From Escherichia phage vB_EcoP_SU10: a stretch of 64,000 bases of DNA. Shown in pieces: positions 52,330-62,107 of the stretch; positions within the stretch are counted from its first letter, which is position 1; each line of letters begins with the position of its first letter. The stretch lies in the sequence record NC_027395.1, one strand, 5' to 3'. The notes beneath the pieces are model-generated. The model worked only from the letters and a program-made list of their open reading frames with translations, made no database searches and was not told where the DNA came from. A program made the translations under genes and the position numbers.

Positions 52330-52533
52330 TTAGTAGAACGAACGAATTTCATCCCACACTTGTTCCTGTTCTTTCCTATAAAAAGAAAGTTGGGTCTTGA
52401 ACATCTCCACTGATGATTCAAAGTTTTTGGTTTGTGCAGCTTCAACGAAACGTTCATGTCGGTTGATTTTGCACCGTAGCATTAAATACTTGGCTTCAAG
52501 TCTCCGAAGAGCCTGCCTTTTCTCAAGATTCAC
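52330..52533 (-). CDS. Hypothetical protein (67 aa)
   Basis: ORF only. Confidence 0.4.
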   Translation of the reverse strand: MNLEKRQALRRLEAKYLMLRCKINRHERFVEAAQTKNFESSVEMFKTQLSFYRKEQEQVWDEIRSFY

Positions 52534-52942
52534 TTTTCAGATACTCTGACCAGTCGCCAGATTCAACCAGAACATCTTGTTCTTCGTCGATGTGATAAAT
52601 CCAAGCGATCACAGTTTCACCGGAGTCCATCTTAACAGCGATCTGAGTACGCTGATAGAAGCTGTCTTCAGGGCTACGTTTGTTGTAACCTTCCAGACGG
52701 TCATACGGACCTTCCAGACCTGCTTTGTCAGTAGCAAACACTTCTACACGAACAGGCTTATTGTTATTACTGTGTGCGAGAGAGATGCTCGGGAAGTAGG
52801 AACCACCGTAACGGAACAGATCGAAGTTATCTTCAGTCCAACCTTCGCCAATAGACTTAGCACCAGCTCGATCATTAACTAAATAGTTAGCTTGACCACG
52901 ACGAAGAGAACCATAAGTTGCTACGTAAATTACTTCTGACAT
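52523..52942 (-). CDS. Gamma-glutamyl cyclotransferase-like (AIG2/GGCT family) protein
   Basis: N-terminal VATYGSLRRGQ (YGSL motif) in a 139-aa protein. Confidence 0.7.
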   Translation of the reverse strand: MSEVIYVATYGSLRRGQANYLVNDRAGAKSIGEGWTEDNFDLFRYGGSYFPSISLAHSNNNKPVRVEVFATDKAGLEGPYDRLEGYNKRSPEDSFYQRTQIAVKMDSGETVIAWIYHIDEEQDVLVESGDWSEYLKSES

Positions 52943-52943
52943 T

Positions 52944-53153
52944 TTAAATACCTTTCCAGTCTTTCATGATGTTTTCAATGTAAGCACACTGCTGATCAGT
53001 GGCTCCTGTTACAAACACTTCTAACCCCAACTGCTCACAGAAGGGATTAAGAATCAATATTCTGGTTTGCCCATACGAGTGATGCTCTCGGTAGATAACA
53101 CACCCAGCATCCCATACAGAGTCAATGGCTTTACTCAATCTTTCATGTTTCAT
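52944..53153 (-). CDS. Hypothetical protein (69 aa)
   Basis: ORF only. Confidence 0.4.
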   Translation of the reverse strand: MKHERLSKAIDSVWDAGCVIYREHHSYGQTRILILNPFCEQLGLEVFVTGATDQQCAYIENIMKDWKGI

Positions 53154-53206
53154 AAAACCTCCAGCTTATCCGAACTAGCCTCCTCTTTCGAAGAGGCTAA
53201 AGCAGA

Positions 53207-53392
53207 TTACTCTGTAATAAAGATTTTGATTACACCGCAGATTGCTGCACTCTCAAATACTGCAACAGCTTCACTTCCCTGAAAGAAGGCCACTTTGCCG
53301 TCAGAGAAGTTAAACATGTCAGCATCTAGGTCCATAGCTCGCATATCACCAGCGTCGTTAGTATCTTTAAACAGAACTTTATACTTATTCAC
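53207..53392 (-). CDS. Hypothetical protein (61 aa)
   Basis: ORF only. Confidence 0.35.
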   Translation of the reverse strand: MNKYKVLFKDTNDAGDMRAMDLDADMFNFSDGKVAFFQGSEAVAVFESAAICGVIKIFITE

Positions 53393-59117: not shown

Positions 59118-59126
59118 GATAACCTC

Positions 59127-59933
59127 TTATGCTACCTGAAGGAGTTTGATCTGCTGGTCAGCTTCTTTAACGTTGTTCCCGTTAATGATTTCATGAAGCT
59201 TCTCAATCGGAAGGCGAGAGTGCAATGCCATCAGAGTGGACATATCACACTGCTGAACAACCTTGTCAACCTGATCGTAAACAAACTTACGGTTTTCACG
59301 ATCACTAATCCAGAAGTTAGACAGAGAACGGTATTCAATACCATAGTCTTTATAACGGATTGCAGATGCTTTACCGTAGAGTTCTTTACGGCGAGTATCT
59401 TTGTCCATAATCACTGCTGGGAGAGACAGGAAGTAGTCACACAGCACACCCAGCATCATCTGAGTTTGCAGAGTGATATCCAAAGCACCAACTACGCCAA
59501 GATGTACGTGACCACCGGCAGTACGAAGTCCCTTATTCTGAGAAGTCGGGGATGGGTTTTTCTGACCAGTGAAGGCGTTGAAATCAGGAGTGCACCCGAA
59601 GATGAACGCTGATTCATTAAAGGTCTTCATCTCTTCTTCAGTGAAGATGTGAGAGCTAACACCCGGAGCTGTTTCCATGTCCAGTTTGTTCAGGACATTA
59701 TTGGTGAGATCGATACCACGTTGCATGTTATCGTTAAACGCTTCAAAACCGCTCTGTGGGTCAATATCAAACTCAGCCAGTACGTTGTCCTCTTGGAGAC
59801 GAACATCCTTAGCCAGAGCGATCTTATCGTCCTTAGAGCAGCCTAATAAACCGGCTACAGAAGTGATGATACCATTTCTAGTACGAACAAACATTTCAGG
59901 GTCAGAGCCGATAAGGAATTTGCGCTTAGTCAT
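59127..59933 (-). CDS. Second carboxylate-amine ligase-like protein (divergent)
   Basis: FLIGSDPEMFV and AGGHVHLGV resemble the E-x-E / HVH motifs of GCS2-type ligases (weak). Confidence 0.5.
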   Translation of the reverse strand: MTKRKFLIGSDPEMFVRTRNGIITSVAGLLGCSKDDKIALAKDVRLQEDNVLAEFDIDPQSGFEAFNDNMQRGIDLTNNVLNKLDMETAPGVSSHIFTEEEMKTFNESAFIFGCTPDFNAFTGQKNPSPTSQNKGLRTAGGHVHLGVVGALDITLQTQMMLGVLCDYFLSLPAVIMDKDTRRKELYGKASAIRYKDYGIEYRSLSNFWISDRENRKFVYDQVDKVVQQCDMSTLMALHSRLPIEKLHEIINGNNVKEADQQIKLLQVA

Positions 59934-60897
59934 TGTAATACTCCACTAGTTCAGAAAAGAGAGATGAGATTGTGTTACCAACTTCTTCAAGAGTAAGACC
60001 GGAATCTGCTCCAGTTCTTTGAATCAGTCGGGCTGTAAAGTTTTGTACTGTAATGTTTCCCAACTTGTCGTCTATTGCTTCACGTTTGTGACCATAACAG
60101 TTGGACCAGAGTCTTAACCACTCTGACATTGTTTCATACTCGTCCGGGTCTTGATCTTTAGCACGAGCAAATCTTCGTAAGGCACCTTGGTTATGGTTAC
60201 GAACATAACCATTCTCGTTGTCGCCAACACCGAAGGGGTTTTGAACCCATACTTGCTTCGTGTATTCATCAGAGTCTACAACCAAAGGAAGGAATGCTGC
60301 TGCTGACATATTGTTGTTAATAACAATAGAGGTGCTCTCACTACTCCCATTGGCTCTTCCTCGTTGAGACCATCCACCGAAGAAGTCACGACCCAACCCA
60401 GCTAACACTAGAGCGATTCCGATGCGTTTACGCTTCAGCCACTCTTCCCTGTCTTCAATTCCTTCTGCTAGGAAATCCATTCCACGATATTGCCCTTCCA
60501 GAATACTACGAAAGAGCATAAGTCCTGTGAAGATCTGATCTGCTGGATGCTCACGAAGGTTGACAGCAACACTATTCGCTGAAGTGATCGTAAATACGTC
60601 ACGATAGCAAGACATGGAGTTCATAATGTCTGCTGTTTCAACCAAGTTCTTTTCAATATCAGATGCAACATGACCATGAAAAGAGTGAGTCCAGTAATTC
60701 AACATCTCCAGTTGCAAGTTGATATCACGGTTGAAGCGACGATAGCGCCCCTCTTCCGTGATAACTTCACCATTAATGTCATTTACACACTGGCCTTGCA
60801 TGTAGTTGTGGATACCGAAGCACCCACGACCTAAGAACTTCTGTTCCCCTAAATCCTGTTGAAGATTAAGAGGTACGATCGTTGTGGAGATTGACAT
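59926..60897 (-). CDS. Hypothetical protein (323 aa) in ligase cluster
   Basis: Overlaps neighbours; no motif recognised. Confidence 0.5.
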   Translation of the reverse strand: MSISTTIVPLNLQQDLGEQKFLGRGCFGIHNYMQGQCVNDINGEVITEEGRYRRFNRDINLQLEMLNYWTHSFHGHVASDIEKNLVETADIMNSMSCYRDVFTITSANSVAVNLREHPADQIFTGLMLFRSILEGQYRGMDFLAEGIEDREEWLKRKRIGIALVLAGLGRDFFGGWSQRGRANGSSESTSIVINNNMSAAAFLPLVVDSDEYTKQVWVQNPFGVGDNENGYVRNHNQGALRRFARAKDQDPDEYETMSEWLRLWSNCYGHKREAIDDKLGNITVQNFTARLIQRTGADSGLTLEEVGNTISSLFSELVEYYND

Positions 60898-60907
60898 AAC
60901 TAACCTT

Positions 60908-62107
60908 TTATTTTCCTAAAAACAATCCGCTCATAATACCATCCCACTCAGAGGATGGAATCACTGAATACTCCGAACTTTGGTCCAGAGTCCCACTACT
61001 GAATCGCTGAACAATATTATAAATATTGAAAAAATCCTTAGTCTCAGCGCGATAAGCGTAGACTAATTTGTCAGCCGTTCTTTCATCTTTAGAAACTCGA
61101 CGAGCAAAGGTAACCAGAAGATTGTCACCTTTGAGCATTTCTGACCCATCTTTTACTAAATCAGGGTGCATCACTGGCAAGAACATTGAGTTGTTCACTC
61201 GTAATTCTGCTGTTTCATCATTCTCATAATGAATCCACTTAAAATCTTCATCACGAAAGTGACCGCACCCATCTCTGTATGACTGTTGACGCCAAGGCAC
61301 TTGAAATGCTTCAGCGTATTTATCAGCCATGCCGACTGTAAATAGCGACGCTGGAAAGATACAAGCATCCCAATCATTACCAACCAGAGTTGCTTTCGTT
61401 TCGCCCAAGAGGTTAGTGTAAGTGCTAACCATTCGTGAGTAAACATAAGCCTGAAGGATTGTCCAGCCTTCAACCAACCATTTATGGAGGAAGGTTTCAA
61501 CTTGACTCTCTTCATCTTCATAATAGAAGGTTCGGTCTAACATCAAATAGAACAGACAACGATCAGCAGGGATATTCTCAGTTGCTACCCCCATAAAACC
61601 TTTATCGTGCCAGCGTAAACAGGAGGGACGATCTTTGTCCACAAATGCTTCCATAGCTTCCAGTACAGCACGAGGTGTGGTTCGATGTTCAGGGTTTTTG
61701 TCGTTCCAACGTTCGATGTTATTCTTGGGAGGTGTGTCTTCATCTTCATACGAACACCAACTTAAAGCTTCAGCTACATGCTTTTCATCACGCCAACGTC
61801 TAAAACCTAACATCTTCATATGAGTTCCGGAGTTCCAGATATGCTTGATTTTACACATATCCATCTCTCGGCTTAACAAGAATTCTTCCCCGTCAGCACT
61901 ACGAACGTTGGCTTCTTCATGCCACACTCGAACGTGCATATTCCATCCATGAGTTGCCTCATACATGTTAGGGTCGAAGTAGTCATCATCTTCATCGTCG
62001 TTTTCATCAACGCCGCCATTATAGTTGCGAAGTTGAAGGAACCCATAACAAGGGGGGTTGACCGTTAAAACATTACCTTCAGTATCTTCTAATGTTACTG
62101 GAAACAT
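60908..62107 (-). CDS. Hypothetical protein (399 aa) in ligase cluster
   Basis: Acidic N-terminal stretch; no motif recognised. Confidence 0.5.
   Translation of the reverse strand: MFPVTLEDTEGNVLTVNPPCYGFLQLRNYNGGVDENDDEDDDYFDPNMYEATHGWNMHVRVWHEEANVRSADGEEFLLSREMDMCKIKHIWNSGTHMKMLGFRRWRDEKHVAEALSWCSYEDEDTPPKNNIERWNDKNPEHRTTPRAVLEAMEAFVDKDRPSCLRWHDKGFMGVATENIPADRCLFYLMLDRTFYYEDEESQVETFLHKWLVEGWTILQAYVYSRMVSTYTNLLGETKATLVGNDWDACIFPASLFTVGMADKYAEAFQVPWRQQSYRDGCGHFRDEDFKWIHYENDETAELRVNNSMFLPVMHPDLVKDGSEMLKGDNLLVTFARRVSKDERTADKLVYAYRAETKDFFNIYNIVQRFSSGTLDQSSEYSVIPSSEWDGIMSGLFLGK

Follow-up and report, generated by a model that had tools for sequence, protein, structure and literature searches.

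A conserved phage cassette of ligases, an amidotransferase and a gamma-glutamyl-cleaving enzyme in Escherichia phage vB_EcoP_SU10, with a probable role in reversible amide ligation

Introduction

Positions 52523-62107 of the 64,000-nucleotide stretch of Escherichia phage vB_EcoP_SU10 analysed here (NC_027395.1; this whole stretch is termed the window) carry a cassette in which an Amidoligase_2 enzyme, a class-II glutamine amidotransferase (GAT-II), a RimK-like ATP-grasp ligase and a gamma-glutamylamine cyclotransferase (GGACT) stand in one array, in the same order as gp77-gp86 of phage phiEco32. Judged by the families of its proteins, the cassette probably encodes a cytoplasmic, ATP-dependent pathway that places a gamma-glutamyl or peptide conjugate on an amine, with the gamma-glutamyl group being removable again. 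The best overall explanation, offered tentatively, is a stepwise and phage-specific amide-ligation pathway built on gamma-glutamyl chemistry, with gp85, or a protein recruited by gp85, as the acceptor. The cassette is already known as an object. Added here are its recurrence in approximately 20 loci in two layouts, its near-complete restriction to phages, the pairing of one ligase with gp85 and the alternative use of gamma-glutamyl-cleaving enzymes.

The co-occurrence of these genes was reportedly described computationally by Iyer, Abhiman, Burroughs and Aravind in 2009. An earlier sequence-only reading of the window had stated that such a co-occurrence was noted computationally and that no product was shown, which agrees with the paraphrases of the 2009 study in two later papers (PMC10580990, PMC11318856). 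Seventeen years after the cassette was first noted, targeted full-text literature searches found no experimental study of it, and later papers repeat the 2009 prediction only. The same reading had named the cassette the best candidate in the window for an uncharacterised system; this is fair as regards function, but the locus is no new discovery, being 97% identical to the type example. The gp77-gp88 region of phiEco32 is the type example behind PF14395 (“Phage phiEco32-like COOH.NH2 ligase-type 2”) and the phage context of PF12224.

The core features of the cassette, in the direction of transcription, are the following:

59127-59933, minus strand: gp86, COOH-NH2 ligase type 2 (PF14395, 2.4e-8; PHROG 3815, 4e-118)
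58500-59117, minus strand: gp85, non-enzymatic partner of the COOH-NH2 ligase, with predicted SH3/Tudor-like beta-barrels and a loop at residues 84-126
57400-58503, minus strand: gp84, Amidoligase_2, a glutamine-synthetase-like carboxylate-amine ligase (PF12224, 4.7e-8; PHROG 7469, 1e-158)
55290-57320, minus strand: gp83, class-II (Ntn) glutamine amidotransferase (residues 1 to ~230; GATase_6, 1e-14) with a tail of ~450 amino acids
53644-54846, minus strand: gp80, RimK-like ATP-grasp ligase (~residues 1-300), then an acidic linker and a C-terminal domain of ~80 amino acids (from PHROG and PDB matches)
52523-52942, minus strand: gp77 homologue, GGACT/AIG2-like gamma-glutamyl(amine) cyclotransferase of 139 amino acids (PF06094, PHROG 2520)

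The region matches 97 phage records at the nucleotide level, with 98.3% identity to Bas91 and 97.1% to phiEco32. The window phage is a Kuravirus (Gordonclarkvirinae), 97-98% identical to these two phages, and its cassette corresponds to phiEco32 gp77-gp88 gene by gene. The phiEco32 comparison gives 97% nucleotide identity over 98% of the region, with equal gene order and every enzyme family shared. The cassette spans ~9 kb, roughly one-eighth of the genome. Its genes all lie consecutively on the minus strand and are overlapping or tightly packed, as the sequence-only reading had described them. When the five enzyme families named by that reading were checked, all five assignments held, four of them above the Pfam cut-offs and that of the ATP-grasp ligase on other evidence. 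Transmembrane segments were not predicted in any cassette enzyme, and the cassette proteins all look soluble and cytoplasmic. Published mass spectrometry of SU10 preparations detected the ATP-grasp, amidotransferase and GGACT proteins.

Ligases

The gp86 protein scores 34 bits against PF14395 (cut-off 25) and is 99% identical to gp86 of phiEco32. In alignments across nine phage groups, the invariant columns are Q47, D49, E54, R137, H142, H144, R182, E200 and R202 for gp86, and G29, E31, E33, H95, H97, E186 and R188 for gp84. The motifs quoted for the two ligases in the sequence-only reading sit on the invariant E-x-E, H-x-H and E-x-R columns of these nine groups. Because these motifs fall on invariant active-site columns, both gp84 and gp86 look catalytically competent, with metal- and phosphate-binding motifs intact. 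Pfam bears out the two ligase calls (57400-58503 at 5e-8, 59127-59933 at 2e-8). The enzymes had also been labelled “GCS2-type”. They are indeed amidoligase-type ligases, but Pfam returns no GCS2 match at E<=0.01, only Amidoligase_2 and COOH-NH2_lig, and their relation to GCS2/YbdK exists only at the level of fold or clan. A sequence search of the PDB detected no solved structures related to either family.

The third ligase, gp80, matches PHROG 2599 at 7e-190, with PHROG 20552 covering residues 319-400. Its only Pfam match, Dala_Dala_lig_C, is below threshold (E 0.0056, 16.6 bits vs. a cut-off of 24). The best PDB matches, at E 1e-3, are RimK-type alpha-L-glutamate ligases, e.g., 7qys, and the gp80 orthologue in the Privateervirus locus (L006) passes the Pfam RimK model with 33.5 bits against a cut-off of 21. 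The claim of an ATP-grasp enzyme at 53644-54846 is thus supported by PHROG 2599, the RimK structures and the Privateervirus orthologue; the Pfam score of the protein itself is weak.

Amidotransferase

Translation of gp83 starts at a rare ATT codon (57320-57318), and the codon of the catalytic cysteine follows at once (ATT-TGT, 57320-57315). The annotation of phiEco32 has the same amidotransferase start, giving a gene of 2031 nt. The sequence-only reading had the right family and motifs (CGIV, RGQHSSG, NAHP and HNGTL, all found in gp83), but had placed the start at 57311. Of 21 loci inspected, 19 have a cysteine directly after the initiator. The ATT start is shared by phiEco32, Klebsiella phage Asterion and SU7, a phage of another genus; ATG, GTG or TTG serves as the start codon in other phages. 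This start may throttle or regulate the translation of gp83. A GGTGGA sequence resembling a Shine–Dalgarno element lies upstream of the ATT codon.

The HSRHATKG, HNG and EVDSE segments of gp83 align with the GlmS segments that contain the glutamine-binding Arg, the oxyanion Asn-Gly and the Asp contacting the alpha-amino group, in a weak match (E 0.1). The tail consists of a low-complexity linker and repeated Zn-ribbon modules, with an internal repeat of residues 400-452 against 609-653 (E 1e-3). CxxC...CxxC motifs are also present in the Privateervirus and WD615 orthologues. Within gp83 there is no recognisable acceptor (synthase) domain, the C-terminal 450 residues having no family match in Pfam. 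In Pseudomonas phage TL (L003:9508-10609), the amidotransferase is annotated as two misc_features with no coding sequence, and an ATG-Cys open reading frame (ORF) is found at 9508-10347; this is either an incomplete annotation or a split gene.

Gamma-Glutamyl-Cleaving Enzymes

The gp77 homologue is the last cassette gene before gp76 and the primase/helicase. It matches PF06094 at 3.4e-17 (63.6 bits, cut-off 22.8) over profile positions 2-119 of 120, and PHROG 2520 at 1e-44. Its translation contains the YGSLRRG motif and a glutamate within RLEGY, which is the putative catalytic residue. The match lies well above the cut-off and the motif is present, so the GGCT/AIG2-like call at 52523-52942 made by the sequence-only reading stands.

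GGACT and/or Peptidase_C26, which have unrelated folds, occur in 18 of the 20 module-bearing loci; the Peptidase_C26 of CVT22 is found at E 7e-18. A gamma-glutamyl-cleaving enzyme was undetected in the Privateervirus locus and in locus L018. Gamma-glutamyl chemistry is supported because one or both of these enzymes recur across the loci. A simple non-orthologous displacement of GGACT by Peptidase_C26 was considered and ruled out, since phiM6, L017 and L026 carry both.

These enzymes bear on the possibility that the cassette modifies the cell envelope, by amidating or extending cytoplasmic precursors of peptidoglycan or a surface polymer and so blocking superinfection by other phages. Amidation of peptidoglycan elsewhere is carried out by amidotransferase-ligase pairs such as MurT/GatD and AsnB/LtsA, and one glutamate of the stem peptide is gamma-linked. 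The several glutaminase-type proteins per cassette (GAT-II, Peptidase_C26 and a second GAT-II) would suit multiple amidations. It is also the sole published idea on the function of the cassette that was traced, namely that the cell wall or receptors are modified to prevent superinfection, as predicted by Iyer et al. (2009) and paraphrased in PMC10580990 and PMC11318856. However, GGACT needs an L-gamma-glutamyl group whose alpha-amine is free, and peptidoglycan, with its D-isoGlu, offers none. The proteins are all predicted to be soluble, and a Mur-ligase, membrane or periplasmic component is absent. The phages are virulent with short latent periods, so that the benefit of superinfection exclusion is unclear, and their hosts range from Bacteroidota to Proteobacteria, with some loci in archaeal-labelled bins. 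An envelope function is therefore regarded as unlikely.

The gp85 Partner Protein

In 19 loci, the gene that comes after the COOH-NH2 ligase is gp85-like. The gp85 family comprises 64 representative clusters, mostly of ~170-230 amino acids, with invariant D6, Y10, P26, K110-G111 and K160. The loop at residues 84-126 is highly conserved, is modelled with low confidence and contains the invariant K110-G111 pair. A Pfam scan of all family members gave only stray hits and no match for gp85, and a sequence search of the PDB returned nothing useful. From its model, gp85 looks like a binding or acceptor protein, without an enzyme-like fold.

Distribution and Layouts

A tblastn search with the COOH-NH2 ligase found 305 phage records, of which 121 are from Pseudomonas, 92 from Escherichia and 22 from Vibrio phages; the remainder include phages of Aeromonas, Proteus, Cronobacter, Klebsiella, Cellulophaga and Sinorhizobium. 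Nine phage loci were annotated, together with 18 loci from a scan of the genomes of 100,044 species with home-made profiles. The same gene set is present in ~20 loci from at least six phage groups. It is found in Gordonclarkvirinae, Bruynoghevirus, Grimontviridae, Zobellviridae-like, crAss-like and phiM6-like phages, and in phage-like contigs of metagenome-assembled genomes (MAGs). Because the same enzyme set recurs syntenically in ~20 independent loci, the cassette is more than a chance assembly.

Two layouts can be distinguished. Type A (Gordonclarkvirinae, Bruynoghevirus and Grimontviridae) runs from two ~300-amino-acid proteins through the COOH-NH2 ligase, the gp85-like protein, Amidoligase_2, GAT-II and one or two small ORFs to the ATP-grasp ligase and GGACT. 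Type B (CVT22, Asterion, WD615, phiM6 and many MAG contigs) has a protein of 270-500 amino acids, Peptidase_C26, GAT-II, the COOH-NH2 ligase, the gp85-like protein, Amidoligase_2 and the ATP-grasp ligase. Both layouts usually end at the primase/helicase, which comes directly afterwards in 13 loci, or in 11 when two additional Gordonclarkvirinae loci are not treated as separate cases.

The 18 loci from the species scan comprise 14 contigs of MAGs or metagenome bins, several of them phage-sized, three small scaffolds of an isolate assembly, which look like contamination, and one contig of a Halobacteriales bin. The cassette family is thus essentially restricted to phages and all but absent from cellular genomes. 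One locus (L011) is a Kuravirus sequence, 99% identical at the ligase, within a MAG labelled Peptococcaceae, and three (L012-L014) are Kuravirus-like fragments on tiny scaffolds of a Herbiconiux daphne assembly; all four probably result from phage contamination or mis-binning. A deltaproteobacterial MAG contig (L028:7340-15432) has two COOH-NH2 ligase paralogues among genes for uracil-DNA glycosylase (UDG), a clamp-loader subunit, single-stranded DNA-binding protein (SSB) and an SNF2-type helicase, with a secretin adjacent. No amidotransferase or ATP-grasp gene lies nearby on this contig, which presents a different context for the ligase family.

In the direction of transcription, the window has early genes, then the cassette, and directly afterwards gp76, the primase/helicase, a polymerase exonuclease subunit, a nucleotidyltransferase and a dCTP deaminase. 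In most groups the cassette likewise lies in a region of replication and nucleotide metabolism, with the primase/helicase adjacent and ThyX, dCTP deaminase, thioredoxin or ribonucleotide reductase close by. This setting would fit a role in supporting nucleotide or DNA synthesis through a glutamate-containing cofactor or thiol, either by remodelling folyl-poly-gamma-glutamate for thymidylate synthesis or by making and turning over a glutathione-like peptide for ribonucleotide reductase and thioredoxin. Peptidase_C26 is the family of folate gamma-glutamyl hydrolase, the RimK-family enzymes MptN and CofF glutamylate cofactors, and the combination of a ligase of the glutamate-cysteine ligase (GCL) fold, an ATP-grasp enzyme and a cyclotransferase mirrors the gamma-glutamyl cycle. 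Such a role is nonetheless improbable: hosts make folate polyglutamates and glutathione themselves, the ligases of the phage show no close relationship to GshA, GshB or FolC, and three ligases with several conserved non-enzymatic proteins exceed the needs of the task. The absence of the family from cellular genomes also speaks against a borrowed metabolic function.

Proposed Pathway

Ligases of the glutamine synthetase (GS) fold and of the ATP-grasp fold form acyl-phosphates, which are then coupled to amines, and relatives of RimK add glutamate. GGACT converts an L-gamma-glutamyl-amine into the free amine and 5-oxoproline, and enzymes of the C26 family hydrolyse gamma-glutamyl amides. In the proposed amide-ligation pathway, gp86, gp84 and gp80 would convert carboxylates into acyl-phosphates for coupling to amines, yielding a short glutamate-containing peptide or amide conjugate. 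The gp83 amidotransferase would either supply a ligase with ammonia from glutamine or hydrolyse a gamma-glutamyl amide. The L-gamma-glutamyl group would then be taken off the amine by gp77, or by Peptidase_C26 in other phages, with glutamate acting as a removable handle.

The acceptor would be a macromolecule rather than a DNA base, the preferred candidate being gp85 or a protein recruited by gp85. This acceptor is favoured because of the strict pairing of ligase and gp85 and the invariant lysine in the conserved gp85 loop; a macromolecular acceptor involving gp85 is nevertheless put forward with low confidence. The product may well be a small molecule instead.

Several points weigh against the pathway as drawn. 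No ORF for a Pup-like or LysW-like tag is present in the cassette. GGACT acts on free gamma-glutamyl-amines, which suits a small-molecule pathway equally. The constant neighbourhood of replication genes is left unexplained by a protein-tagging model. The gp85 protein was not detected in phi14:2 or in loci L026, L027 and L028, and a gp85 domain fused to the long amidoligase of phi14:2 was looked for and not found. The gp85 model has only moderate confidence, and the apparent flexibility of its loop may stem from a shallow alignment.

The most specific form of the pathway would be a phage protein-conjugation system. The COOH-NH2 ligase would put the gamma-carboxyl of glutamate on the gp85 loop lysine, extension or amidation of the chain would fall to the second ligase and the RimK-like enzyme, and GGACT, Peptidase_C26 and the Ntn hydrolase would reverse the modification. 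This joint reading is doubtful as a whole. If true, gp85 would become a polyanionic or carrier protein serving as a metabolite scaffold, or a DNA mimic adding to the restriction resistance of Gordonclarkvirinae.

Restriction Resistance and DNA Modification

The BASEL study reported strong in vivo resistance of Gordonclarkvirinae to restriction-modification (RM) systems, with no known modification pathway or inhibitor. Hypermodification of DNA or nucleotides by the cassette, with an amino-acid-derived group placed on a base, would account for this. The window contains 13 EcoRI, 36 EcoRV and 11 EcoKI sites, so the resistance does not come from missing sites, and the constant association of the cassette with replication genes, including those for UDG, SSB and the clamp loader in loci L004 and L028, would also be in keeping with a DNA target. 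However, virion DNA of the module-bearing Bruynoghevirus tf, taken as a proxy from the literature, is cut by RsaI, HpaI, EcoRV, SmaI and HaeIII, and an ordinary vector sufficed for cloning it. Bulk hypermodification of DNA is unlikely because the DNA of phage tf is cut by these five restriction enzymes.

Further evidence points the same way. Hydroxymethylase, 5-HMUDK, aGPT-Pplase, DpdA/TGT, QueC and Mom are all missing from the cassette proteins in Pfam and PHROG, the rest of the genome being judged from its annotation. Over the whole window, sites observed against those expected are 0/16 for PstI, 0/13 for SacI, 0/7 for NcoI and 134/296 for GATC, and CCWGG occurs five times. This strong avoidance of PstI, SacI, NcoI, GATC and CCWGG suggests that the DNA is exposed to restriction. 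DNA modification is accordingly considered a very remote prospect. The window also has 101 EcoP1 sites, and the in vivo resistance to these RM systems needs another explanation.

The BASEL authors speculated that the nucleotidyltransferase and dCTP deaminase modify DNA. The former, at 48590-50017 on the minus strand, is a 475-amino-acid protein with a weak PolyA_pol/CCA-adding head domain (E 0.002) and adjoins the polymerase exonuclease subunit. A tRNA nucleotidyltransferase is also found near the cassette in the Vibrio phage WD615 locus. Uracil-containing DNA, another BASEL suggestion, is unlikely, as a thymidylate synthase is encoded.

The sequence-only reading had proposed that the module builds a modified metabolite or peptide tag, or modifies DNA, virion or host proteins. 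This was too broad to fail; it is narrowed by the soluble proteins and the gamma-glutamyl enzymes, and its DNA option is weakened by the cleavage of tf DNA.

Relation to Known Systems

The cassette resembles pupylation, the LysW pathway, the Puu and butirosin pathways and the gamma-glutamyl cycle, yet it belongs to none of them, because their defining tag, carrier or partner enzymes are absent. Pupylation (PafA and Dop) likewise uses two paralogous GS-fold enzymes, and a gamma-glutamyl-lysine isopeptide chemistry with a deamidation step is plausible for the cassette. However, none of the listed ORFs encodes a Pup-like tag ending in GGQ or GGE, and Pfam gives no Pup_ligase match. Conversely, pupylation proceeds without an ATP-grasp ligase, an Ntn amidotransferase or GGACT, whereas the cassette has all three. 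The LysW/LysX carrier pathway shares a RimK-like ATP-grasp enzyme with a constant small non-enzymatic partner, and also Zn-ribbons, although in the cassette these are on gp83. Unlike LysW, gp85 is an SH3-like protein of ~200 amino acids without the acidic C-terminal tail, and LysZ, LysY, LysJ and LysK are absent.

In the Puu pathway (the GS-like ligase PuuA and PuuD, a Peptidase_C26) and in butirosin synthesis (the ATP-grasp BtrJ and the GGCT-like BtrG), glutamate is placed on an amine by a ligase and taken off again by a C26 enzyme or cyclotransferase. The cassette variants include removal enzymes of both kinds. The difference is that no oxidase, decarboxylase or carrier enzyme for a protected intermediate was identified in the cassette, which is phage-restricted. 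Glutathione synthesis and the gamma-glutamyl cycle (GshA, GshB and GGCT) have in common with it the folds of a GCL/GS-like ligase, an ATP-grasp ligase and a cyclotransferase, but there is no specific similarity to GshA or GshB, and the cassette adds a further ligase, an amidotransferase and conserved non-enzymatic proteins.

Working out the function of this large and ancient cassette would bring to light either chemistry that is new and peculiar to phages (for instance a peptide tag, a pathway on a carrier protein or a novel metabolite) or an unfamiliar means of coping with host defences. Podoviruses that infect Escherichia, Pseudomonas, Vibrio, Aeromonas, Proteus, Cronobacter, Klebsiella, Cellulophaga, Sinorhizobium and marine hosts have conserved it, and several of the phages that bear it are candidates for therapy. 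The refined anatomy given here makes the problem genetically tractable in the K-12-infecting isolates Bas90 and Bas91.

Companion Proteins and Small ORFs

The remaining features of the cassette are as follows:

60908-62107, minus strand: gp88, 399 amino acids, the fastest-evolving cassette gene
59926-60897, minus strand: gp87, 323 amino acids, fast-evolving (AlphaFold2 model, pTM 0.75)
55054-55287, minus strand: gp82, 77 amino acids, conserved at the same position in Grimontviridae
54849-55073, minus strand: gp81, 74 amino acids
53389-53637, minus strand: gp79, identical to phiEco32 gp79 in 82 of 82 residues
53207-53392, minus strand: gp78 homologue, 61 amino acids with one hydrophobic stretch
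52944-53153, minus strand: accessory ORF of 69 amino acids, present in Bas91 and absent from phiEco32 (indel)

The ORFs at 58500-59117, 59926-60897 and 60908-62107, which the sequence-only reading had called unrecognisable in function, are real ORFs without a Pfam match. The gp87 protein matches nothing in Pfam or, by sequence and by model, in the PDB, and its sequence homologues are found only in Escherichia and Shigella Gordonclarkvirinae. The best matches of its model in the BFVD are proteins of module-bearing phages, including a 442-amino-acid protein of CVT22 (prob 0.98, TM 0.3-0.5), the gene of which lies just upstream in its cassette and is the first of the type B layout. The link between gp87 and the CVT22 protein is not borne out by sequence methods. 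On the strength of the models, gp87-like proteins are probable companions of the cassette. The gp88 protein is without a Pfam or PDB match, shows 42-45% identity between genera of Gordonclarkvirinae and shares only a weak motif with ORF21 of the Privateervirus locus; it is at most a candidate member of the pathway. Compared with SU7, identity is 93% for the primase/helicase, 81% for the COOH-NH2 ligase, 63% for gp85, 55% for gp87 and 42-45% for gp88. The evolutionary rate thus climbs along the cassette, being lowest at the primase/helicase and highest at gp88.

The segment 52944-53637, taken by the sequence-only reading for one ORF of unrecognisable function, in fact holds three (52944-53153, 53207-53392 and 53389-53637), the last of which is the characterised gp79. 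The gp79 protein belongs to the middle temporal class, inhibits the sigma70 holoenzyme and activates transcription dependent on gp36, the phage sigma factor (PMC8948821). It is embedded mid-cassette and is functionally unrelated to the chemistry of the cassette.

The presence of this RNA polymerase regulator would fit a cassette devoted to host take-over, in which the RimK-like enzyme glutamylates, for example, ribosomal protein S6 or RNA polymerase and the other enzymes act on separate targets. The ATP-grasp enzyme is closest to RimK, and gp87 and gp88 are fast-evolving, as host-interacting proteins often are. Against this, gp79 is missing from the 7-11-type relatives (PMC8948821), and the strict co-inheritance and fixed gene order of the cassette across very distant phages and hosts argue for one pathway. 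A set of independent take-over enzymes is therefore hardly to be expected.

The 69-amino-acid ORF is an addition relative to the otherwise identical locus of phiEco32, where only the last 44 nt of the segment 52944-53206 align, and it is probably not part of the pathway. For gp81, no similarity could be detected to the ORF that takes its place in Privateervirus. Three small ORFs have Lys-Gly-Ile near the C-terminus: 52944-53153 and 54849-55073 end in KGI, and KGIK lies nine residues from the end of 55054-55287. The idea that this is a meaningful motif was dropped, since it probably reflects the Shine–Dalgarno sequence (AAAGGA) of the next, translationally coupled gene.

Transcription Unit and Neighbouring Genes

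The following features lie upstream of the cassette:

62119-62481, minus strand: gp89, 120 amino acids (PHROG 11370, function unknown), at the same position as in SU7
62663-62680, minus strand: terminator-like hairpin and T-run in the intergenic gap upstream of the cassette; SU7 has an annotated terminator at the equivalent place

The intergenic gaps within the cassette contain no terminator-like sites, and no consensus promoter of the phage sigma factor gp36 was found inside the cassette or just upstream of it. The cassette genes appear to be co-transcribed. The gp89 gene apparently belongs to their transcription unit, with the terminator-like site and a small ORF at 62484-62636 (gp90 homologue) lying upstream of it. 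The hairpin at 62680-62663 is likely to be the upstream boundary of this unit. Genes for HNH homing endonucleases are inserted between cassette genes in SU7 (L029:9028-9498), phiM6 (L009:7546-7989) and WD615 (L008:6146-6562 and 11470-11967).

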